DNA from: Candidatus Omnitrophota bacterium
GTDB taxonomy: Bacteria > Omnitrophota > Gorgyraeia > Duberdicusellales > 4484-171
DNA: 64,000 nt
Reading direction: 5' to 3'
NCBI GenBank assembly: GCA_003154195.1
Contig: PMCS01000024.1
Span: forward strand, 28-64,027
In this document: positions 7,462 through 57,480 of the stretch, piece by piece
Layout of the letters: each line of letters opens with the position of its first letter
Numbering within the stretch: position 1 is the first letter of the stretch
Notes under the pieces: generated by a model
What the model was told of the DNA's origin: nothing
Seen by the model: only the letters and a program-made list of their open reading frames with translations
Database searches by the model: none
Program-made: the position numbers and the translations under genes

Positions 7462-10400
7462 TTACGGTAATGACGCAAACTGTGCTAACGATATAATCTG
7501 CTTCATCGAAACAATCCGAAACGTCAGCCGGTCGAAGAAATCCGGCCCGACTGCCGCAAATTCCATCTTCTGCGATGTGGGGCTGGAGGCCACCTGAATA
7601 CCGGACATCTTGATACCGCCGGGGGAACTGGTAACTTCCACAGGTTTTTCTGCTCCGGCGTTGCTGCCTGCAGCCGTAATCACAAACTTCGGCTGAGTGC
7701 CTGAAGCATCAAGAGTTATCTCCGAGCCGGGATACTCTCCCTTAAGCTGCGCGATATATTCCTGAGCCTTAACTAAATCAAATGTAGACACTCCTCCTTT
7801 AAGAGTAACAGCAATCTCGTAACGGCCGGCAAGGGCCTCTTCAAACTCCTGGTTGGGACCGAAAACGCTCGTTGCGCCGTTAGCTCCGATGATACCTAAA
7901 AAAGTATGGATTGCATCATTTATCCTAATCGCATCAAGAACCGTCAACTTTTGAGCGGGGCTGGCAGCTGAGGTTTCTTCAACTATATTGATTATTCCTT
8001 GCCAATTACCCGCGGTAAGATGCTGAGCGTCTAAGGAATCTATCCTTACTTCTCTTGACTCTTTGCCTGCCGTCAAAGCTTCAAGATTGTTTCGATTGAT
8101 GATTAACGTCCGGTTGCCACCGATGCGCAAAACGTCAATTTCCTGCGGTAGGTCAGCTAAACGCATAATCCACGCGCCATAGCGCATAGCGTTAGAAAGC
8201 CCCTGATAAATTGTTTTCGCCGCGGCGGCAGAAATATCTTTTTCCACATATAAGGTCTTACCGTCTCTTTGTGCATCAACATTTTTATATTCCACTTGGT
8301 TATCGCGGGAGTTTTCAACAATAAGAACTATCTCTCGCCAATTACCCGCGTCAAGATACTGAGCGGATAAGGAATCTATCCTTACCTCTCTCGACTCTTT
8401 GCTTGTCGCCAAAACTTCGAGATTGTTTCGATTGATGATTAACGTCCGGTTGTCACCGATGCGCAAAACGTCAATTTCCTGCGGTAGGTCAGCTAAACGC
8501 ATAATCCACGCGCCATAGCGCATAGCGTTAGAAAGCCCCTGATAAATTGTTTTCGCCGCTTCGCCGGCAATAGCACTTTCGACACCTAAAGTCTTTCCGT
8601 CTTTTTCGACATCAACATCTCGATAGTGAACCGGGCTGGCGGCGCCGGCTGCGGTTTTTGTTTTTCCTGCCGTCAGTTGTCTTATGCCCGATTTTCCCTG
8701 TCCGGCACTGGCCGAACGGGAAACTCTCTTCCCAATCGCATTAATCCGCCAGAGTTCGCCTTCTACCGCAATAGACCATCCCCGCGCTTCAAGAGCTTGG
8801 CGGAAAGGCTCGAGGTCACTCAGTGAATTCATCCTAAAGCCTTCGTCGTTATAGACCACATCCCGGCTATCCGTGATAATAAAACTACTTCTATGGAGAC
8901 GGATAAAACTCACCAGACGCGCAAAGGTAAGATCCTTTCCTACGCCGAGCGCGTTTATCGCCTCGGCTAAGACGCTAAGAAACCTGGCAAAATACTTAAA
9001 TTCGTTGATACGCACTATACTTGGTGAACCTCTCCTGGCGTCGGCGCCGGAAAAAGAACGACCGCGCTTAGCTGCTACCCCGGTCGTAAAAAGTATCTCC
9101 CTGGGAGTGGCGCGATCCCCCGTCCCAAGGTTATGGATATCATCCACCGGGCTGGCGCTGGAGACGGATGCAAGGTCTTCACGTGCTTCTCGGGAAGGTT
9201 GCCATACGTCAATCGCTCTAATGGCATCAGCCAATTGCTTTTGGTAAGTTGTTGTTCCTACTGTTTTGAATATGGCGGCGTTGGCTAAAATTCTTGCCTC
9301 GTCCTGGTATAGTCGGCGTATCAAAGAAAGCCGCGACTGGAATTCTAAAACCAGTGGTCGATGCTGCGTCGCATATTCTCCCGCGGATAAGGCAGTTATT
9401 TTACCAAGCGGCATTATCACAAAAGAGCTCGGGACGCCTTTGTAGTATTCACTTTCTATCGTTGCCATATCCTCTGAGGCCATTCTTCTAACCATCTCAA
9501 TGCCTGCAGTCAAAGCCTTTTCTGGCATAATTCCCCTGGGTAAAACTACATCTACCGGCTGGCCAAAATAAGCCGCAAGGCTTTGGGTATCATAATCTTG
9601 CGCTGATTCTAAAACCGTTATTCTGTCCCCTGATGCTAAAAAAGCAAAGCGCGGCAAGCCGACCGATAACGCTGCGGCTATGCCAAATTTAAAAAGGTCG
9701 GGCCGGTTGGCAAGAAACTCTTCTTTGCTGGAGGCACCTATCCCAGCAACGATCTGCGAAACGGCTGCTTCTTTTATCGTATCGATGGCACTCTCGGAAT
9801 ATCGTCCATCAGCGCGTATCATTTCCCCTGAAGCAGCGATTTGTTCTTGTATTGCTGCTCCGATATTTTCAAAAAGTTTTTTACGGCTGGGAAGATCTGT
9901 TTTGTCTATTCTTGAAGTCGTGTTGACCGGGCTGGCGTTGGTCGAATCCCATAATTTCTTGATAATCATCGCGGCAAGCGTAACTGTGTCTTTTTTATCG
10001 CTATTGACTACCCCGTTCATGGTCAAGCGTTTTAACCATTTAAACATTGGCTCTTTAAATTGGTCTAAGCCTAAAACCATCACCCAGGTAACGGGATTGC
10101 TTTCTAAAAAAGCGGTAGGAACAGCATCGCTCCAATGACGGGGGACTCCTATAGTCCAGCCGCCTCGATGTAACGACATAATCAAATCCCTGCCAAAGGT
10201 TTGTTCTAAAAGGTCGTCCTTTTGGTCTTGTCGCAAAGCAAACCTTAACGCGTACTCGGAAATAAAGACTTTTTTCACTCTTGATGTTGCAATCGGCGGC
10301 AGGAGCTTTACCATTTCCCCGGCCGCGTCATAATTAGCACCCTGGGTTTCTCTCATTGCCGTCTTTATCGCTCTAAGTTCGTCTTTTATTTCTCTCAAGG

Positions 10401-12753
10401 AAGAGCTGTTGGTTATTGCCGGGCTGGGAGAAGACGCCACATAAAAATCATCGATTGGCTCAATTTCGCGGGTTTCTGTTGGGAATAGAGTTACTCTGGC
10501 GACCAGGTTGTAGGCCCCGACTGTATGGGTAAGGGACAAGCTAACTTTTTTTTCCTCGCCGTCAACTATAGCGTCAACCCTCTTCGACCAGGCTATATCC
10601 AACCCAACGGGTTTACTTCCCGTACCGGGTATCAACGCGTTAGCAGCATCGGCAACCAATTCGGGCCGCAGCAAATCAACCCCCTTCGCTCTCAATGCTT
10701 CCAAAAGCTGGGCGGGTTTATTTTTGTTTATCGTGAGAGAGTAGCGAGCAGGTGACGTTTGCTTCTCATCGCCCTCGCCGACCGGGCTGGAAATTGCTTC
10801 GACCCCGATATTCTTTACGCGGCCATTCTGGTAAAGCGCTAAAAGAAATGTAATATACGGTTTGCTCGAGAAAGACCTTCCAAGGCTACCATCACTGCTA
10901 TCAATCGATACCCGTAAATCAAACTCTCCCCTGCGAGTTTGCTCACGAGAAACCGCGATAGAGAGATAACCTGTTTTACCAATTTGTGGTGTATAATCAT
11001 CCACCGGGAGCTGGAGAACTCGGGAAATTAATTCTTCCAATTGAAATTCTGCTGAACCATGCAACGACGAAGCATTAGCCCGCCACCATGTAGGCGTTTT
11101 AACCGTACCCCTATCAATCACGTTTACCGTATCGCGATGCGTTTCCGCAAACCCTAAAATCGCTCCTGTCGCGATTTTTCCGACAGCATCGGCCTCAGCC
11201 GGCGCCATGCGTTGCAAAGGGCTGGCGGCGCGCTGATATGCCGCAAGCCAGTCGTTACCACTTGGCTTCGAAGTCTCGACGGTTAACGTGTAGGTATTAG
11301 TATCATAAGTAAGGGTAGTCGTGCCGCTATGTGAACGCAGTATTATTTTTCCGGGAGTATTTTTATCCGCTGACAGAAAAGACCAGGGAGTAATACCGGC
11401 CGCGGACGATTCGCCGTTTCGAATCGAAAAATTGGCCACTGAGCCGCTATCCGATCCATTCGCAATCCATATGCTGATTACTTTTTTGCCTTCCCTGACT
11501 TCCAGCGATACAGGAATCTCAACTTTTAATTTACCGGGATCGGCGGGAATGTCTTTCGCGATATCATCAGGTCCCCTTTGCCGCGCGGCCGGCGCTGTTG
11601 GCAACGGACTCGCGCCTACCCCTGCTACTGCCAAAGTACTCACATTGACCAGCTTGCCGTTGTGGGCTACGCTATCCAGAGAAGAGCTTATGGCCAGCTT
11701 AGTGACCAGGGGGCTGTTGGCGATAAGGGATTCGATACCGCCGGAGAAGTAACGCCGGCGGACTTGGTGTTTGGTAGAAGGGTCCTGTTCTTTTTTAATG
11801 TAGTTATAGATGCCTTTCTTGAAGGCCTGGGTATAGAGAGAATAGATTTTTTCTTTGGCCTGGGGGTCGTTGATGTCTATGCCTTTGATATTCTTCTGGT
11901 TGATGTAGTGCTTATAGAATGATTCTTTGAATTTATCCTTGAACCACTTGGCCAGGATCAGGGAGTAGTAGATCTGGCGTAACGTAGCAAAATTCTTGCC
12001 GGAATTAATATCATCGGTGATTTTTGGTACTACGACTTCGCGCATTACATCCGAAGCCACCTTGTTGGTTTGCCCTGCTTTTTCATCCTTCGTTCCTTTC
12101 TGCAATGCGAGAAAGTCTTGTTCGAGCATTGCCTTAAGCGTAGCCTGGTTTATCACTACGGTGTTCTTGTATTCATAGACCTCTGACTTATCGGGAGTGA
12201 TCCAAATCTTGTTGAAGGTATTTATCGGTAAATTATCGGTTCCCGCTAATTTACCGATTTGAGAGTAAACCGATTGCCAGTAATTCCTTCCGATAGAATT
12301 TTCCGGATGGGTGAGGCTGGAGACTAATTGCTTTAAGATATAGTCCTGGGCTAACATATCTCTCCCTACATCGGTATGTATCGCTTCATTGGTGATTACC
12401 CGGTCTTTTTCATAAACGGATAAGTTGACCCAGAGGTCGTTTTCCGGGATGGTTAATCCTGCTAAAAAATACCTGATCAATTTATCGGCCTCTTCCTTGT
12501 CTACCGTGTCTTTGCTGGCAGTATCGATGATAAATTCTATCTGCAGGGGGTTAGCCGGGTTAAGTTTTAATCCCTTTAATATAGGAAAGGAGTAGGTTGC
12601 TGAGAGATTCAGTAGCTGGGTCGGTTCGGGCAGGGCCATGGCGGCGTGGGCGTAATTCACGCCTACGCTTGTGCCCAGGAACGAAGACAAAACAAGAATG
12701 AAAACGAGTTTCGAAAATAATTTCTGCTGGGGTTTGGCGAGAAAAATAAACAT
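7462..12753 (-). CDS. giant secreted hypothetical protein (1763 aa) with an internal tandem duplication
   Basis: N-terminal signal peptide; no recognisable catalytic motifs; 2 x about 112-aa near-identical repeat (AAKTIYQGLSNAMRYGAWIMRLADLPQEIDVLRIG.NRTLIINRNNLE). Confidence 0.6.
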   Translation of the reverse strand: MFIFLAKPQQKLFSKLVFILVLSSFLGTSVGVNYAHAAMALPEPTQLLNLSATYSFPILKGLKLNPANPLQIEFIIDTASKDTVDKEEADKLIRYFLAGLTIPENDLWVNLSVYEKDRVITNEAIHTDVGRDMLAQDYILKQLVSSLTHPENSIGRNYWQSVYSQIGKLAGTDNLPINTFNKIWITPDKSEVYEYKNTVVINQATLKAMLEQDFLALQKGTKDEKAGQTNKVASDVMREVVVPKITDDINSGKNFATLRQIYYSLILAKWFKDKFKESFYKHYINQKNIKGIDINDPQAKEKIYSLYTQAFKKGIYNYIKKEQDPSTKHQVRRRYFSGGIESLIANSPLVTKLAISSSLDSVAHNGKLVNVSTLAVAGVGASPLPTAPAARQRGPDDIAKDIPADPGKLKVEIPVSLEVREGKKVISIWIANGSDSGSVANFSIRNGESSAAGITPWSFLSADKNTPGKIILRSHSGTTTLTYDTNTYTLTVETSKPSGNDWLAAYQRAASPLQRMAPAEADAVGKIATGAILGFAETHRDTVNVIDRGTVKTPTWWRANASSLHGSAEFQLEELISRVLQLPVDDYTPQIGKTGYLSIAVSREQTRRGEFDLRVSIDSSDGSLGRSFSSKPYITFLLALYQNGRVKNIGVEAISSPVGEGDEKQTSPARYSLTINKNKPAQLLEALRAKGVDLLRPELVADAANALIPGTGSKPVGLDIAWSKRVDAIVDGEEKKVSLSLTHTVGAYNLVARVTLFPTETREIEPIDDFYVASSPSPAITNSSSLREIKDELRAIKTAMRETQGANYDAAGEMVKLLPPIATSRVKKVFISEYALRFALRQDQKDDLLEQTFGRDLIMSLHRGGWTIGVPRHWSDAVPTAFLESNPVTWVMVLGLDQFKEPMFKWLKRLTMNGVVNSDKKDTVTLAAMIIKKLWDSTNASPVNTTSRIDKTDLPSRKKLFENIGAAIQEQIAASGEMIRADGRYSESAIDTIKEAAVSQIVAGIGASSKEEFLANRPDLFKFGIAAALSVGLPRFAFLASGDRITVLESAQDYDTQSLAAYFGQPVDVVLPRGIMPEKALTAGIEMVRRMASEDMATIESEYYKGVPSSFVIMPLGKITALSAGEYATQHRPLVLEFQSRLSLIRRLYQDEARILANAAIFKTVGTTTYQKQLADAIRAIDVWQPSREAREDLASVSSASPVDDIHNLGTGDRATPREILFTTGVAAKRGRSFSGADARRGSPSIVRINEFKYFARFLSVLAEAINALGVGKDLTFARLVSFIRLHRSSFIITDSRDVVYNDEGFRMNSLSDLEPFRQALEARGWSIAVEGELWRINAIGKRVSRSASAGQGKSGIRQLTAGKTKTAAGAASPVHYRDVDVEKDGKTLGVESAIAGEAAKTIYQGLSNAMRYGAWIMRLADLPQEIDVLRIGDNRTLIINRNNLEVLATSKESREVRIDSLSAQYLDAGNWREIVLIVENSRDNQVEYKNVDAQRDGKTLYVEKDISAAAAKTIYQGLSNAMRYGAWIMRLADLPQEIDVLRIGGNRTLIINRNNLEALTAGKESREVRIDSLDAQHLTAGNWQGIINIVEETSAASPAQKLTVLDAIRINDAIHTFLGIIGANGATSVFGPNQEFEEALAGRYEIAVTLKGGVSTFDLVKAQEYIAQLKGEYPGSEITLDASGTQPKFVITAAGSNAGAEKPVEVTSSPGGIKMSGIQVASSPTSQKMEFAAVGPDFFDRLTFRIVSMKQIISLAQFASLP
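7965..8636 (-). repeat. tandem 2 x about 336-bp in-frame duplication inside the giant gene
   Basis: nt 8001-8200 nearly identical to nt 8338-8535. Confidence 0.8.
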
Positions 12754-20304: not shown

Positions 20305-20490
20305 ACTTAGCTCCTGGGTAATGGTAAGGGTAACGATGCCCGTATAGGCTAAAGACTTGGTCAGGGTAAAGGTAAGGATGCCAGTATAGGTTAGGGTTAA
20401 GGTAAAGGTTTTAAGATTAGTATCAGCCCTAACCCTTGCCGTAACCCAAACTGGCTTCGTTACCCTAGCCCTAGCCTTAACCGATTTTTA
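20305..20490. repeat. about 170-bp imperfect palindromic repeat (GGTAAGG/GGTTAGG-rich arm versus CCCTAACC/CCTTAACC-rich arm), copy 1
   Basis: reverse complement of 20400-20490 matches 33440-33530 almost base for base. Confidence 0.8.
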
Positions 20491-33349: not shown

Positions 33350-33612
33350 TGGTTAGGGCTATGGCTAGGCTCTCCTTCGCCCTTCGAGCTTTGGAAAAGT
33401 CTCGCCGAAGCCATAGCGAAGGCGGAAAGCCGGTAATAATAATCAGCTAGGGCTAGGGTAACGAAGCCAGTTTGGGTTACGGTAAAGGTTAGGGCTGATA
33501 CTAATCTTAAAACCTTTACCTTTACCTTAACCTATACTGGCATCCTTACCTTTACCCTGACCAAGTCTTTAACCGATACCGGCATCGTTACCCTTACCCT
33601 AGCCGTTTTTAA
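33350..33612. repeat. about 170-bp imperfect palindromic repeat (copy 2, inverted relative to copy 1) plus additional flanking hairpins
   Basis: 33440-33612 matches the reverse complement of 20305-20490. Confidence 0.8.
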
Positions 33613-37397: not shown

Positions 37398-37596
37398 GAT
37401 CCCTCCTGATTTTCTTTGGTTAATACCAAAAACCAAATACTTTTGTCCACAGATTTCAAGGATTTTGTAGAAAAAACATGGCCCAAACCCATTAATTTTT
37501 TATACAATGGCTTGATATATGCTATTTTGACCGGAGTTAATTATACCGCTATCCCCGTTTTCGGCAAGAATAAAGAAAAATTGTTATTTTTATTGG

Positions 37597-38367
37597 TTAT
37601 TTGGGGTTTACGGTGTTGGCTAAGGTAATATATTGTTTCAGGGAGATATTCTCCGGACGCAGATTGGGGTCGATGCCGCAGGATAACAGGATATCCTTTT
37701 TATCCTCCAGACGGAGAGCATTGATGATTTTTTTCCGGCGGTTGGCGAAGGCTTTCTTGATCAGTCCAAAGAGGAAATCCTCGTTTTCGGCCTTAACTGT
37801 AGGCGCAATCGAGAAATCCAGCATAGCAAAAGTAGAACTGACCTTAGGAATCGGCGAAAAGGCGTTAGCCGGGATATCAAAAATTTTAGTGATTTTAGCA
37901 TAATATTGTAAATAGCAGCTTAAAAAAACGTAATCATCAGTTGAGGGTTTAGCGATAAGCTTATCGATGAATTCTTTCTGGCAAGTCAAGTAAGCGTGTT
38001 TGATAAATGACCGATTTTCAATCAGACATTTAATGATCGGACTACTGATGCAGTAAGGGATATTGCCAAACACAATCACCTTATCCTTGAGACAGGAAAA
38101 ATCAAAAGTAAGAATATTTTTATTCACCAACTCGATATTTTTATAATTAATGAATTGGATAACCAGTAATTCATGTAATTTTGGGTCGACTTCTACGGCA
38201 TAGAGTTTTTTGGCTTCCTGCGCCAGGTATTTAGTTATCGCGCCCTTCCCCGGCCCGATCTCGAGCACAGTCTCCCCGGTAACGTTGATCGAATTTTTGA
38301 TTTTTTCGATATAACTTAAGTTGGTGAGAAATACCTGGCCGAGAGTTTTGCGATTTAGATAGCTCAT
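37597..38367 (-). CDS. rsmA: 16S rRNA (adenine1518/1519-N6)-dimethyltransferase
   Basis: KsgA/Dim1-family N-terminus (LGQVFL...LEIGPGKGAIT). Confidence 0.85.
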   Translation of the reverse strand: MSYLNRKTLGQVFLTNLSYIEKIKNSINVTGETVLEIGPGKGAITKYLAQEAKKLYAVEVDPKLHELLVIQFINYKNIELVNKNILTFDFSCLKDKVIVFGNIPYCISSPIIKCLIENRSFIKHAYLTCQKEFIDKLIAKPSTDDYVFLSCYLQYYAKITKIFDIPANAFSPIPKVSSTFAMLDFSIAPTVKAENEDFLFGLIKKAFANRRKKIINALRLEDKKDILLSCGIDPNLRPENISLKQYITLANTVNPK

Positions 38368-39581
38368 ATTAAAACCTGAATATAAACCAAAAACCTACCA
38401 CCAAGACACTAAGGCACAAAAAACAAAGACTAAAAATAAATTTTCACCACAGAGAACACAGAGCGCACAGAGAAAACAGAACCAAGAAACTTTTCCCCAC
38501 CCGCTCGCTTCGCTCGCTGGAGAGCACGAAGCCCACGAAGGGAAAACAAATTTTTACCGCAAAGGCGGTGTGTAGCGGAGCGAAGCGTAACCTCCCCAAA
38601 AGGGGACAAAGTGCGCAAGGTAAATAATTAAGTACGTGTCCCCGGAACTTCGAACTTAAAATAAGTTTTAATGGTTTTTCATGGAATCTCTTCCGAATAT
38701 TAAAAAAAAGGGATAGTTAAATTGTCTTGTCAAAATTATGAATTTTCCATCCTGAACGGACGGCCCAGACATTAGTTCAATTTCATCTTTATCTTCGATA
38801 TAATAAAAAGCCATACCGAAGATGTCATTCCTATTGGCAAGTTCTTCGGGTATAGGAATTTTTATTTTTATTATATCGTCAGCATATCCGGATTGGCTTG
38901 TGTCTTTACTTATGGGGGAAACTTTAATTACACTGACTTTTCCCCCGTAAGTAACTTTAACTTTAGGATGCTCGAAATAAGCCGCCGCTACGCTTACACT
39001 TATTTTTTGTTCTGTTTTTAATGCATTTTGAGGAAATTCTATTTCTACGCCGTCAAGAGGGTAGTCGGAATTCGGAACAGTTATGAGACCGCCTTTAGGG
39101 CCTATTGTTTGTGAGCATATTTCAACAAAATTAGATTCATACGTTATAATTTTAGCTTGAGCGCAAAATGTTGATCCGGGAAGCATTAATGTAATAAGCC
39201 CAAGATAAAAGATATTAAGGAATTTTTTCACGAAAACATCCTTTTTTATTTTCCTCTGACAAAAAAATCATACGACAATCCTATTTTTTAATATTAGTTG
39301 AAAGTCTTTAGCGGCCGGGGTGTCTTCTAGTTAATAATAACGCGAAAAAGTATTTGTCTTTATCTTTGGAAATCTGCGTAATCTGTGGACAAAAATATTT
39401 TGTATTTCTTTGTACCTTAGCAGTCAGAAATCATTCTTCCAGTTTTTTCATTCCTCTTCCTTATCTCTTGTTTTTTGCTCTTTTTCTTTTGGTATCTCTC
39501 TGCGAACTCTGTGCGCTCTGTGGTGAAAATTTTATTTTTTGTGCCTTGGTAGTAAATTTTTTGGTTTATCTTCTTTTGTTT
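38368..39581. mobile_element. 1.2-kb cassette with about 100-bp imperfect terminal inverted repeats inserted between pdxA and rsmA/ksgA (MITE-like; carries one secreted-protein gene)
   Basis: left inverted repeat 38372-38492 and right inverted repeat 39460-39581 are reverse complements (shared ...attttcaccacagag...cgcacagag... and ttaccaccaaggcacaaaaaa cores); both abut the flanking genes directly. Confidence 0.55.
38668..39231 (-). CDS. hypothetical secreted protein (cassette passenger gene)
   Basis: N-terminal signal peptide MKKFLNIFYLGLITLMLPGSTFCAQA; no recognisable domain. Confidence 0.5.
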   Translation of the reverse strand: MKKFLNIFYLGLITLMLPGSTFCAQAKIITYESNFVEICSQTIGPKGGLITVPNSDYPLDGVEIEFPQNALKTEQKISVSVAAAYFEHPKVKVTYGGKVSVIKVSPISKDTSQSGYADDIIKIKIPIPEELANRNDIFGMAFYYIEDKDEIELMSGPSVQDGKFIILTRQFNYPFFLIFGRDSMKNH

Positions 39582-40520
39582 TTATTTGTTTGAAAGCTTC
39601 ACCGCTAACTTTATGGCTTCAATCATCGACGAAATAAACGGCTTCTTCCCCTGCCGCATCAGGCCGAACGCCGTGCCATGGTCCGGCGAAGTACGGATAA
39701 CCGGAAGGCCGATAGTCAGGTTTACCGCGGTTTCGAAGGCGAGCAGTTTTAAGGGAATCATCCCCTGGTCGTGATAGCTGCAGATGACACAATCGTATTT
39801 TTTTAACGCGTCTTCGGTGAATAATGTATCGCAAGGATATGGCCCAAAAACGCCTTCTTTGAATAAACGCGCCGCGGCCAGAAGTTCTTTTTCTTCTTTG
39901 CCTAAAAACGTATCGACACCGGCATGGGGATTAAAGGAGGCCATGACGAGGCGCGGTTTTTTTATTTTAAATAATTTTTTTAAGGCAGCGCGGGTAAGGT
40001 TTATTGTCTTGGCAATTTTTTGTCGTTCCAGAAGAGCCGGGACTTTTACCAGCGGTACATGGCGCGTCATCAGGACGACTTTCAGTTTTTCCGAGACCAT
40101 CATCATCTCATAGTTCTTTACCTTAAAATAATCGGCAAGGTACTCGGTGTGGCCGCAAAATCCCGGCAAAGTTAAGGCGACGGCTTCTTTGGATACCGGC
40201 GCGGTTACGATGGTGATTTTTTTGTCGCTCGCTATTCCCAGGGCTTTATTGATGTAATCAAGCGAAGCTCTTCCGGTTATCCTTGACGGCTTACCGGGCT
40301 TTACTTTATCGATGCCGGAAGTATTGTTGTCGATAAATGTTAATCGGCCGGATATTTTTTTGAATGTCGCCAGGCGGGTAAGTATCTTTTCGTCGCCGAT
40401 TACGATAAATTTTACGTTTTTAAAGGTTTTCTGTCTCAGCAGGAATTCAATAGCGCGGACAGTAATGTCGGGGCCGCATCCAGCCGGATCACCGGTGGTT
40501 ATGATTACTTTAGCGGGCAT
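39582..40520 (-). CDS. pdxA: 4-hydroxythreonine-4-phosphate dehydrogenase
   Basis: PdxA-family N-terminus (ITTGDPAGCGPDI) and metal-binding His residues. Confidence 0.85.
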   Translation of the reverse strand: MPAKVIITTGDPAGCGPDITVRAIEFLLRQKTFKNVKFIVIGDEKILTRLATFKKISGRLTFIDNNTSGIDKVKPGKPSRITGRASLDYINKALGIASDKKITIVTAPVSKEAVALTLPGFCGHTEYLADYFKVKNYEMMMVSEKLKVVLMTRHVPLVKVPALLERQKIAKTINLTRAALKKLFKIKKPRLVMASFNPHAGVDTFLGKEEKELLAAARLFKEGVFGPYPCDTLFTEDALKKYDCVICSYHDQGMIPLKLLAFETAVNLTIGLPVIRTSPDHGTAFGLMRQGKKPFISSMIEAIKLAVKLSNK

Positions 40521-51016: not shown

Positions 51017-51282
51017 AATTTTTCCCCTATTCCCCGATGGTTGGCGATTGCGCGAAAAATAAGCATTGTTTGCTTATCCCGCAAATCGCATTCTGTTACA
51101 TTGTATTATTTGCATTATATCATTTATGTAATTATTTGCTAACAAATTATTTCGCGCAAAAATTGCGAAACGATCCGCGCAAAATTTTCCTTGTCGGCAC
51201 AGCGCATTGTTGATAGACTATGCCCAGGTGATTAAAAAAGAATAAAACTGTAACCACATGATTACAGTGCGTAGCGAAGCAT

Positions 51283-51335
51283 TGAATTTCTTTGTGACTT
51301 AGTGCCTTGGTGGTAAAGTTTTTGGTTTTTACCTT
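51283..51335 (+). repeat. solo copy of the CTTGGTGGTAAAgTTTTTGGTTTT element ending at the TPR-gene start codon
   Basis: tttctttgtgacttagtgccttggtggtaaagtttttggtttttacc. Confidence 0.75.
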
Positions 51336-56204: not shown

Positions 56205-56375
56205 CGAAAATAAATTAAGGAAATTGGGGTATCGGAAAATCATGATTTGGTGATTTGGGTATTGGGATACTCGGCCATCGGTTATCGCCTCTTTGCCGTT
56301 TCCCCTAATTTCCCAGTCTCCCAATCCCCGAATCCTGATCCCCTAATCCCCTGATATCCCAATTTAAAATTACCC
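56205..56375. repeat. 165-bp internally palindromic repeat (GGGATA/TTGGG-rich arm versus TATCCC/CCCAA-rich arm), copy 1, immediately 3' of trxB
   Basis: direct repeat of 57306-57480 (about 85% identity). Confidence 0.8.
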
Positions 56376-57305
56376 TTAAACACTAATATAGCCGCCCTTC
56401 AGATATTTATAGGCGCTTAGCGCGGCAACCGCGCCCTCGGCGGCGGCGGTGATCAATTGCCGCAATGGCCGTTTTCGGCAATCGCCGCAGGCCCAGATAA
56501 ACGGCTGCGATGTAGTCAAATATTCATCAGTGACGATAAATCCCCCTTCGTCCAGATTCACACAATCCCTAAAGACTTCCGTAGCGGGCTTTACACCGAC
56601 CGCGACAAATAAGCCTTGGACATCGCGGGTATGGGTTTCTTTTGTCTTTAAGTTTTCAACAATAAGGCGTTGGAGCGATTGTTCCCCTTTTAATTCCCTG
56701 ATCGCGCTGTCGTAAATGACCTCGATGTTATTTTTTCCCGATACTTCTTTTCGCAGGTATTCCATGGCCCGGAAGCTGTTCCGGCGGTGGATAAGATAAA
56801 CCTTACGGCAAATACTTGCCAGGTACAAGGCTTCTTCGAGGGCAGTGTTGCCTCCGCCGGCCACAGCGACATCTTTATTCTTAAAGAAAAACCCGTCGCA
56901 TACCGCGCAGTAAGAAACGCCCTTGCCGAGAAATTCTTCCTCGCCCGGGGCGCCGAGTTTTTTGAATGAAGCGCCGGTAGCGAGGATCGCGCTTTTAGCG
57001 CGGTAGGTTGTGTTTTCCGAGTGAAGGGCCAGCGCTTTATCTTCGACGCGAACCTTAGTGATTTCTTCCTGTGTAATTTCGATATCCAGGTCCTGCAAAG
57101 TTTTTGCCAATTCGGCGGCAAGTTCCCGGCCTTTTGTCCCTAATTTTGTCCCGATGTAATTATCGACGGTTTCCATGAAGAAAAGCTGCCCGCCCACGCC
57201 TTTTGATTCGAAAAGAATAAAATCAAGACCGGAGCGTTTAGCGTAAACCGCCGCGCTTATTCCGGCTATCCCTCCTCCGATAATCGCAAGGTCTGTATTT
57301 GTCAT
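56376..57305 (-). CDS. trxB: thioredoxin-disulfide reductase
   Basis: FAD motif GGGIAGISAA, redox-active CAVCDG and NADPH motif GGGNTALEEA. Confidence 0.85.
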   Translation of the reverse strand: MTNTDLAIIGGGIAGISAAVYAKRSGLDFILFESKGVGGQLFFMETVDNYIGTKLGTKGRELAAELAKTLQDLDIEITQEEITKVRVEDKALALHSENTTYRAKSAILATGASFKKLGAPGEEEFLGKGVSYCAVCDGFFFKNKDVAVAGGGNTALEEALYLASICRKVYLIHRRNSFRAMEYLRKEVSGKNNIEVIYDSAIRELKGEQSLQRLIVENLKTKETHTRDVQGLFVAVGVKPATEVFRDCVNLDEGGFIVTDEYLTTSQPFIWACGDCRKRPLRQLITAAAEGAVAALSAYKYLKGGYISV

Positions 57306-57480
57306 AATGATTTTTAATTAAGGAGATTGGGGTATTGGGAAATTAGGATTTGGATATTAGGATACTGGGATATTTGCCTATCGGTTATCGCCTCTTTGCC
57401 GATCCCCCTAATTCCCTAATTTCCCAATCCCCAAATCCCGATATCCTGATCCCCTGATATCCTAAAAGGAGATCCCGATA
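57306..57480. repeat. 165-bp internally palindromic repeat, copy 2, immediately 5' of trxB
   Basis: aattaaggagattggggtattggg...gatatcctgatcccctgatatcc. Confidence 0.8.

Follow-up and report, generated by a model that had tools for sequence, protein, structure and literature searches.

Why do pdxA and ksgA, genes of a conserved operon, stand 1,214 bp apart (38368-39581) in one Omnitrophota genome, and what kind of DNA lies between them? The case comes from a 64-kb stretch of Candidatus Omnitrophota bacterium contig PMCS01000024.1 (assembly GCA_003154195.1), referred to below as the window, in which the two genes are separated by a segment, here called the cassette, made up of two arms in inverted orientation, each abutting a flanking gene, and of a gene for a 187-aa protein, the passenger, between them. 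We read this segment, with a probability of roughly 0.55, as an insertion at an ancestrally tight pdxA|ksgA junction, bounded by the halves of a stutter hairpin (an inverted pair of repeats built of short tandem units) of a class that crosses phyla, and with a loop that holds an acquired gene for an exported protein of ZU5-like fold together with repeat debris.

The split of the gene pair by an insertion, proposed in an earlier note on this DNA, is borne out by comparison with the nearest relatives, in which the junction is either tight or filled by a compact hairpin. The comparison stands at family level, as the closest available genomes show 55-58% PdxA identity. The nearest relatives keep the order mfd-surA-pdxA-ksgA. 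Among four genomes named Candidatus Omnitrophota with PdxA 50-56% identical, pdxA and ksgA overlap or lie about 4 nt apart in two (L010, L014), and in the other two (L011, L012) are separated by a spacer of about 105 nt formed by a compact stutter hairpin whose units are of another type, gaagatggagaatggaagataga..., scoring z 8.4 in L012 and z 1.0 in L011, where the score is not significant and the hairpin is recognised by eye. More distant relatives (L015, L016, L020) all carry other, unrelated genes at this place, and the pdxA-ksgA junction is therefore a recurrent insertion spot. In one of them (L016, a metagenome-assembled genome (MAG) labelled Omnitrophota/Planctomycetes), two genes lie between pdxA and ksgA, one of them for a TPR protein, and a copy of the first ~19 nt of ksgA (atgaaaccacgcccaccac) stands on either side of the TPR gene (7722-7745 and 9208-9235), in the manner of a long target duplication. 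The earlier note had considered that relatives might carry the same gene between diverged flanks, which would make it a gene conserved in the lineage; in this family-level comparison the passenger was found at the junction in none of them. These comparisons, together with the composition of the gene described below, lead us to conclude with high confidence that the junction was ancestrally tight and that the passenger reached it later, probably by horizontal transfer.

Arms and interior of the cassette

The elements of the locus are as follows, with positions in the window; half repeats and the dyad are given without strand.

37437-37466: family-B half repeat (gtCCACagatttcaaggattt) in the ksgA-ppx spacer, complementary to 39370-39407 (38 nt, 82%) and without a partner in its own spacer
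37597-38367, minus strand: ksgA/rsmA (16S rRNA adenine dimethylase), downstream of the insertion (PF00398, E 2.5e-48; N-terminus as in relatives)
38384-38429: left arm, outer module, a half repeat (aaaccaaaaacctaCCACcaagacactaaggcac...) of family A, which is dispersed over many spacers here
38441-38481: left arm, inner module TTTTCACCACAGAGaaCACAGAGcgCACAGAGaaaaCAGAA, tandem 9-nt units, pair-specific and sharing its motif class with the ends of GxxExxY elements
38497-38606: GC-rich dyad (cgctcgcttcgctcgc...gcggagcgaagcg) enclosing a ccgcaaaggcgg hairpin and a solo CACGAAGccCACGAAG half repeat, then tccccaaaagggga (assessed by fold scores and Rfam)
38668-39231, minus strand: passenger gene, for a 187-aa exported protein with a predicted ZU5-like beta-sandwich fold
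39239-39243, minus strand: Shine-Dalgarno-like AAGGA, 7 nt upstream of the passenger GTG start (read from the sequence)
39370-39390: solo half repeat of family B (aaatctgcgtaatctgtggac), within the cassette and upstream of the passenger (repeat comparison)
39496-39529: right arm, inner module tCTCTGCGaaCTCTGTGcgCTCTGTGGTGAAAA, mirror of 38441-38481 (repeat finding, alignment, shuffles)
39535-39567: right arm, outer module, family-A half repeat (tttttgtgccttggtagtaaattttttggttt) (repeat finding, alignment)
39582-40520, minus strand: pdxA, upstream of the insertion (PF04166, E 5.9e-79)

The two ends are indeed inverted repeats that reach the flanking genes, the ksgA ATG (38365-38367) and the pdxA stop codon (TAA, 39582-39584) lying directly at the arm ends. 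A repeat finder returns a 42-nt core that is 83% complementary (38432-38473 and 39497-39538); the arms share a perfect 16-mer, CACAGAGCGCACAGAG, and three more collinear blocks out to 38378 and 39573, and a gapped alignment of 38368-38500 with the reverse complement of 39450-39581 gives 75% column identity. The Smith-Waterman score of the two spacers is 59, against 22 +/- 2.7 and a maximum of 38 in 500 dinucleotide shuffles. Pairing of the arms in the sense RNA is predicted to contribute a ddG of -90 kcal/mol, compared with -36.7 +/- 5.9 and a minimum of -60 in shuffles; it favours the sense strand by 14 kcal/mol, a difference not regarded as significant. No other gene of the window is bracketed by matching halves (the next score, 43, stems from two complete palindromes). 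The halves are strictly sorted: the pdxA-passenger spacer holds right-type halves only (B, an A-like fragment, cacagag, A) and the passenger-ksgA spacer left-type halves only (A, cacagag), and the three spacers around ksgA and the passenger show no internal inverted repeat (z about 0).

The terminal repeats of about 100 bp described in the earlier note are thus real as repeats, but they are not one specific unit. Each arm is a composite of a generic outer family-A module and an inner cacagag module of roughly 40 nt, of the form TTCACCAC(AGAGnnCAC)n, and the latter alone is pair-specific within the window. The cacagag unit that the note had singled out, CACAGAGnnCACAGAG, occurs in the window only at the two arms, bar one degenerate family-A site. 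The search for further copies of the ends that it had suggested was negative for the inner module, of which no second copy exists in the window or 6 kb beyond it (70 kb of contig), whereas the outer A module has at least 8 copies in the window. No target-site duplication is visible: the bases outside the arms, CTCAT and TTATT, form no direct repeat, and no close empty site is available by which to fix the ends exactly.

The solo family-B element reported beside the right repeat is likewise present, at 39370-39390, and is 84-87% identical to other R-type copies of family B in the window. It interleaves with the A/cacagag arms together with its complement at 37437-37466, one half lying past ksgA and the other within the cassette, an arrangement that a single simple insertion does not explain. 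The idea that family-B right arms are closer to each other than to left arms was not borne out by comparison. The arms also create spurious open reading frames (ORFs), at 38430-38618 (minus strand) and 39354-39593 (plus strand), with low-complexity peptides such as …SVFSVRSVFSVVK… and …LCELCALCGENF….

The passenger ORF is real and intact, as claimed, and is found on 12 contigs of independent assemblies that are 99.6-100% identical and differ only by scaffold Ns. It starts with a GVG-type GTG and encodes an N-terminal hydrophobic helix. Its GC content (0.349, against 0.465 +/- 0.032) and its GC at third codon positions (GC3; 0.283, against 0.524 +/- 0.047) are both the lowest of the 46 genes of the window, and because it is this strongest compositional outlier the passenger is probably foreign and horizontally acquired. 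A word-indexed search with the protein returned itself as sole match. An exhaustive HMMER search gave 87 remote homologues, none exceeding 34% identity in a set of 1.8 billion cluster representatives; four of them stand alone, at 172-187 aa, and many others, of 570-1,100 aa, carry the domain at the N-terminus, one of them together with Lcl_C. Their alignment shows a conserved IGPxGG...PLxG..I.VP.GA...SPLI...GYAD...FAMAFFYD...TRHF pattern, along with N-terminal signal- or lipoprotein-like sequences. The closest stand-alone homologues (30-34% identity) adjoin genes for HicB, HTH/ORF6N and Nmad3 proteins, a neighbourhood that, judged by its gene content, is accessory-gene territory.

The structure prediction that had been suggested for the passenger proved informative. 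With the homologue alignment AlphaFold reached a predicted local distance difference test (pLDDT) score of 83, compared with 41 from the single sequence, and Foldseek matched the model to ankyrin ZU5 (3ud2_B, E 4.6e-6, probability 1.0, TM 0.50), 4d8o (E 2.4e-4) and the FIIND of NLRP1 (7crw_A, E 1e-2). The modelled product is an exported beta-sandwich module of ZU5-like fold. It shares this fold and a GG-x-[LI] ... P-x-GA motif pattern with the ZU5 domains of ankyrin, UNC5 and the NLRP1 FIIND; unlike them, it is bacterial and exported, and its larger homologues carry the domain N-terminal to modules such as Lcl_C. No Pfam family matched it at E<=0.1, the ZU5 profile included, and none in NCBIfam or PADLOC.

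Between the passenger stop and the left arm, the GC-rich dyad seen in the earlier note is present, but its proposed nature as a structured RNA is not supported. Folding z scores were -1.0 for 161 nt in sense (minus strand), -2.5 for the antisense (plus strand) and -0.16 for the whole 300-nt spacer in sense, the dyad and cassette gave nothing meaningful against Rfam even at E<=5, and the window contains no second copy of the dyad. These results make no convincing case for a structured RNA gene, folding being not clearly above shuffles and no described family being matched. The dyad probably consists of remnants of nested palindromes, or forms a terminator-like hairpin behind the passenger, and is no demonstrable RNA gene.

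The window forms part of a 159-kb contig (ENA ERZ27256924 k141_131175) of an Omnitrophota population from Stordalen Mire metagenomes, and its sequence is also found in MAG GCA_003154645.1. Nearly all of its genes lie on the minus strand, in the local order mfd, a 105-aa membrane protein gene, a surA-like gene, pdxA, the passenger, ksgA/rsmA, ppx and ppk. The absence of a transposase or integrase, noted earlier, is confirmed in the Pfam matches of the called genes; nor is there among them a gene for a RAYT (REP-associated tyrosine transposase, Y1 type, named after repetitive extragenic palindromes). A GxxExxY gene or a pseudogene remnant of one is absent from window and cassette. An integron cassette with an attC site was set aside, a possibility weighed by reasoning only: repeats stand on both sides, and no integrase family is among the Pfam matches of the window. 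Promoter and terminator consensus scans gave counts equal to shuffle expectation, and tRNA-Glu is the sole match of the window to Rfam at gathering thresholds. Elsewhere in the window, a 1,763-aa ORF (7462-12753) has no Pfam match and contains two 300-nt direct repeats of 87% identity (7978-8277 and 8314-8613).

Stutter repeats in this genome and in others

Halves of the kind that make up the arms occupy many spacers of the window. On the plus strand a half near the downstream gene begins with CCAC and stutters inward in units of 7-10 nt; an AT-rich centre of 60-120 nt follows, and then a mirror half that ends in GTGG beside the upstream gene. An internal inverted repeat with z >= 4 is present in 13 of 40 spacers, with several more seen by eye. 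The units fall into family A (accaccaaggcac), family B (gtccacagatttctcagattt) and others based on GAT, GTAGAAA, GGGATA and GGTAA. One palindromic unit of 153 nt (ggtaagggtaacgatgcc...) occurs twice in different spacers 13 kb apart (20323-20475 and 33446-33598), inverted and with 95% identity, and hairpin units have therefore been copied recently within this genome. Another, of 150 nt (ggggtattgggaaattagga..., 83% identity), sits in the two spacers that flank the gene at 56376-57305 (56213-56362 and 57316-57465). A tandem array in L078 (3144-3645), with 3.4 copies of a 147-nt unit that each contain a stutter hairpin of CACTGAG/CACCGAG type (84% matches), indicates that such units can also amplify in tandem.

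The class is by no means confined to this genome. A scan of metagenome contigs for CACCACAGAGNNCACAGAG yielded at least 120 stretches, from which 685 kb were retrieved. Among the matches listed, the motif is paired with its mirror within 450 nt in 66 of 120 stretches, on contigs whose GC content runs from 36% to 73%. In general the sequence reads TTCA-CCAC-(AGAGnnCAC)n, followed by a loop and the mirror, with the unit variants CACGGAG, CACTGAG, CGCAGAG, CACGAAG and CACAGAT, the last being family B of the present genome. Most copies among these matches are bare hairpins of 40-200 nt downstream of genes, and the ORFs around pairs are convergent in 15 cases, tandem in 23 and divergent in 3. Rfam has no family for the class, hairpins of other organisms matching only generic microRNA-precursor models below threshold. 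In a comparison of the "nn" positions of 61 hairpins, made for compensatory change, the match was 0.41 within loci and 0.33 between them; the register was imperfectly anchored, and the result is not usable. In the literature we found nothing relevant on the repeat string or on intergenic repeats of Omnitrophota.

Loops are mostly of 5-200 nt, and five of those among the matches listed are longer. Two of the five (L048 and L061) each hold a GxxExxY gene (TIGR04256; E 5e-44 and 3e-31), and the 685 kb contain no others; the remaining long loops hold a GNAT-like ORF (L110), an IS3-type transposase pair (L075) and ordinary genes. In L061 the arm leaves the GxxExxY reading frame uninterrupted (…TTEVTEITEK…), and stutter repeats probably seed many "hypothetical proteins" in databases. 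On the practical side, they yield spurious small ORFs and break assemblies by N-gaps.

GxxExxY genes were then chosen independently of the motif, by a tblastn search of PLSDB. The gene of Bacteroides finegoldii, between radA and the gene of an FAD-dependent protein, is bracketed by TTCACCACAGAGGACGCAGAGGACACGGAG and CTCTGTGACCTCTGTGTCCTCTGTGGTGAA; that of Bernardetia, between ade and a guanylyltransferase gene, by a related repeat pair; and that of Sphingomonas parapaucimobilis, between fabD and fabG, by TTCACGCGAAGGCGCGAGGACGCGAAG and its mirror. Treponema has a short inverted repeat of CACGGAT type, a compact CGCAGAG hairpin adjoins the gene in Gemmatirosa, and in metagenome locus L163 TTTACCGCAGAGATCGCAGAGTTCGCAGAG and its mirror stand around a GxxExxY gene between ubiD and acnX. 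No flanking repeat was found at the Persicobacter gene. Direct repeats of about 50 nt accompany the gene in L149 (Fusobacteria ZRK30 plasmid, 666-785 and 1161-1280) and L151 (Prevotella nigrescens, 633-752 and 1179-1298), which may represent a different layout of the same kind of unit. Arms and gene are both missing from two informative empty sites, fabD|fabG of Sphingomonas paeninsulae and radA|FAD protein of Parabacteroides distasonis; in the canonical case the two therefore behave as one inserted unit. After radA of Phocaeicola massiliensis (L155, 1502-2149), the place of the GxxExxY unit in B. finegoldii and of the empty site in P. distasonis, there is a 215-aa cysteine-rich ORF.

Recent movement of these units was also considered. 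A burst of GxxExxY paralogues was rejected as a sign of it, since the proteins 83-99% identical to that of L048 are all at one orthologous locus, amidase|GxxExxY|HAD hydrolase, and the order amidase, GxxExxY, HAD hydrolase, GT20 is conserved in marine metagenomes (L156, L170-L173). Arms at orthologous GxxExxY loci are about 90% conserved while the adjoining spacer has diverged, which suggests selection on the arms. From such comparisons GxxExxY units look stably inherited and not obviously active. The family itself is very large (at least 7,998 of 8,000 candidates scored at E<=1e-10). We found no description in the literature that links GxxExxY genes to repeats of this kind; the link comes from our own comparisons.

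Origin of the cassette

If the cassette is an insertion bounded by stutter-hairpin halves, a stepwise history would account for its nested layout. The pdxA|ksgA spacer of this lineage may first have held a family-A hairpin, as many spacers do here; at this junction there is a hairpin in L012 too, and less clearly in L011. A cacagag-type element would then have entered the loop of that hairpin, and the loop of the cacagag element would now be filled by the passenger with the GC-rich hairpin behind it and the B and A-like halves in front. The most likely course is a nesting of insertions within the loop of a hairpin, and the cassette may not have arrived as one piece; a stepwise assembly is favoured by the resident-type half repeats inside the cassette and by the foreign composition of the gene. 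The alternative raised in the earlier note, an insertion into a palindromic hotspot, is also compatible with the data: L012 (in L011 by eye) has a hairpin at the junction, and the interior of the cassette is a mosaic of further half repeats. In a read-through surA-pdxA-ksgA transcript the two arms could pair into a long, imperfect double-stranded stem. By analogy, such a stem could be a substrate of RNase III, and cleavage would free the passenger mRNA, separate the pdxA and ksgA messages and limit polar effects, the genes of the operon staying expressed. Mobility of the cassette is unproven, and no mobilising enzyme is encoded in the window.

Several observations weigh against this explanation. 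No polymorphism of presence and absence is seen among the 12 population contigs. The search for PdxA in 5.8 billion proteins gave none above 58% and the scan of genome contigs a best match of 55%, which keeps the comparison at family level. The outer A modules are generic and not specifically paired, with 81% identity between the two and 73-90% identity to further A copies of the window. Among GxxExxY genes, some have direct repeats or no repeats. Compared with GxxExxY units and those of S23p, the cargo here is unrelated and the size 2.5 times the canonical one, and the interior contains extra resident-type half repeats (B, A-like) that GxxExxY units do not have; the different cargo, the size and these halves are easier to reconcile with a mosaic assembled on the spot than with a clean element. 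RNase III processing is put forward at this locus only by analogy with the intervening sequences (IVS) of 23S rRNA. Finally, the 16 compact hairpins of the window lack any asymmetry between sense and antisense folding, and RNA-level selection is for this reason not demonstrated here.

Two other explanations deserve discussion. In the first, the whole 1.1-1.2-kb unit of cacagag arms and passenger would have come in all at once as one mobile cassette, a member of the GxxExxY/IVS type with exchanged cargo, mobilised in trans, for example by a GxxExxY nuclease. The joint presence or absence of arms and gene at canonical sites, the close fit of canonical arms to neighbouring genes, as here, the other cargo in loops of the same motif class (the GNAT-like ORF of L110, the IS3-type transposase of L075) and the uniqueness of the cacagag module to this locus within 70 kb all speak for it. 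We nevertheless judge it unlikely: there is no second copy of the passenger and no relative above 34% identity in 1.8 billion representatives, the passenger is foreign in composition but the half repeats adjoining it are resident types (family B, 84-87%), neither a target duplication nor a GxxExxY gene or remnant is visible in the window, and GxxExxY units look stably inherited rather than actively moving.

In the second, there is no element at all. The half repeats would be gene-end signals, one type following stops and its mirror preceding starts, between which a lineage-specific passenger landed or arose, so that the pairing of the ends would be functionally meaningless. Many spacers do carry an F-type half by the downstream start and an R-type half by the upstream stop, heterologous pairs (e.g. 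51017-51335) and solo halves exist, the A modules are generic and folding shows no strand asymmetry. What makes this explanation doubtful is the cacagag module, which is restricted to two sites in the window, where it stands in mirrored order together with A, and which forms tight palindromes in many other organisms, as well as the conservation of arms at orthologous GxxExxY loci. An assembly artefact or a chimera made by repeats can be dismissed as highly improbable: repeat-rich spacers can mis-join contigs, and some population scaffolds have N-gaps at other repeats, but nine contigs from independent ENA, NCBI and Logan assemblies, three of them 20-159 kb long, are collinear over the 3.4-kb region, with 99.6-100% identity.

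Comparison with known systems

The insertion favoured here shares traits with several described families of repeats. Like REP and their compounds BIME (bacterial interspersed mosaic elements) and REPIN (REP doublets forming hairpins), stutter repeats are high-copy intergenic sequences, often inverted dimers able to fold into larger hairpins, and are enriched between unidirectional and convergent genes, downstream of ORFs. A REP is a palindrome of 20-40 bp that bears the tag GTAG or CGTC (Di Nocera et al. 2013, PMC3733652). In contrast, the half units here are non-palindromic and lack such a tag, consisting of tandem 7-9-nt stutters from CCAC. With miniature inverted-repeat transposable elements (MITEs) such as Correia/NEMIS, RUP and ERIC, the cassette has in common terminal inverted repeats and insertion beside coding sequences, with plausible co-transcription with neighbours. 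Correia hairpins are RNase III substrates. MITEs are non-coding and 70-300 bp long (PMC3733652). The cassette, which the earlier note had called MITE-like, is an inverted-repeat-bounded insertion of a recognisable class but no MITE in the strict sense: it is 1.2 kb long and coding, its composite arms measure about 100 nt and no duplication is visible, where MITEs have 15-30-bp terminal repeats and target duplications.

The resemblance to GxxExxY units (TIGR04256 / PF13366 PDDEXK_3) is closer. Their ends have the same motif, TTCACCAC(AGAGnnCAC)n with the mirror ...GTGGTGAA (as in Bacteroides L147 and in L048, L061, L156 and L163), they contain one small ORF that is co-oriented with the flanking housekeeping genes, their ends lie some 1-20 nt from the neighbours, and they too split conserved gene pairs (fabD|fabG, radA|FAD protein, amidase|HAD). 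The same type of stem thus brackets GxxExxY genes in several phyla, is far commoner as a bare hairpin, and here brackets a foreign gene in a conserved operon. This suggests that there may be a single architecture by which a gene can enter a transcription unit and cause no polar damage, and the locus provides concrete sequences that bear on RNase III processing and on nuclease-dependent mobility. It is tempting to go further and to regard the CCAC-stutter repeats as ends of a widespread, unnamed class of "operon-safe" cassettes that would include the 23S IVS and the GxxExxY units, with stems cleaved by RNase III so that the insert leaves the host transcript and the host genes take no harm, exchangeable cargo, the PD-(D/E)XK protein GxxExxY as mobilising or homing nuclease and, as MITE-like derivatives, the bare hairpins scattered through Omnitrophota, Acidobacteria-like and other genomes. 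This is a speculation that we would put forward only with considerable reserve; if it were true, the present locus would be the first seen with an exported ZU5-like cargo.

By analogy, the closest described counterpart is the IVS of 23S rRNA in Coxiella, Leptospira and Salmonella. That of Coxiella is a selfish element of 428 nt with a 28-bp stem of terminal inverted repeats that contain tandem GACAGAT heptamers (Warrier et al. 2016, PMC4990558); its loop carries an ORF (S23p), and RNase III excises the element (PMC4990558). The origin and mobility of such sequences have been debated since about 1990 (discussion in PMC4990558). They differ from the cassette in site (helix 45 of rRNA, as opposed to an operon spacer), in length (about 0.43 kb, as opposed to 1.2 kb) and in cargo (S23p, a four-helix bundle, as opposed to a ZU5-like exported protein), and their excision by RNase III is demonstrated, where that of the cassette transcript would be expected by analogy. 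What the two have in common is a short insertion with inverted repeats at its ends that form a long stem, tandem heptamers or nonamers within these repeats (GACAGAT in Coxiella; here CACAGAGnn and the CACAGAT type), a loop with a single small ORF, and a place inside an essential transcription unit that is not destroyed by the insert. The broader lead that deserves to be followed up is that bare hairpins, GxxExxY units, the IVS of rRNA and the present insert with its cargo may share one stutter-repeat architecture.

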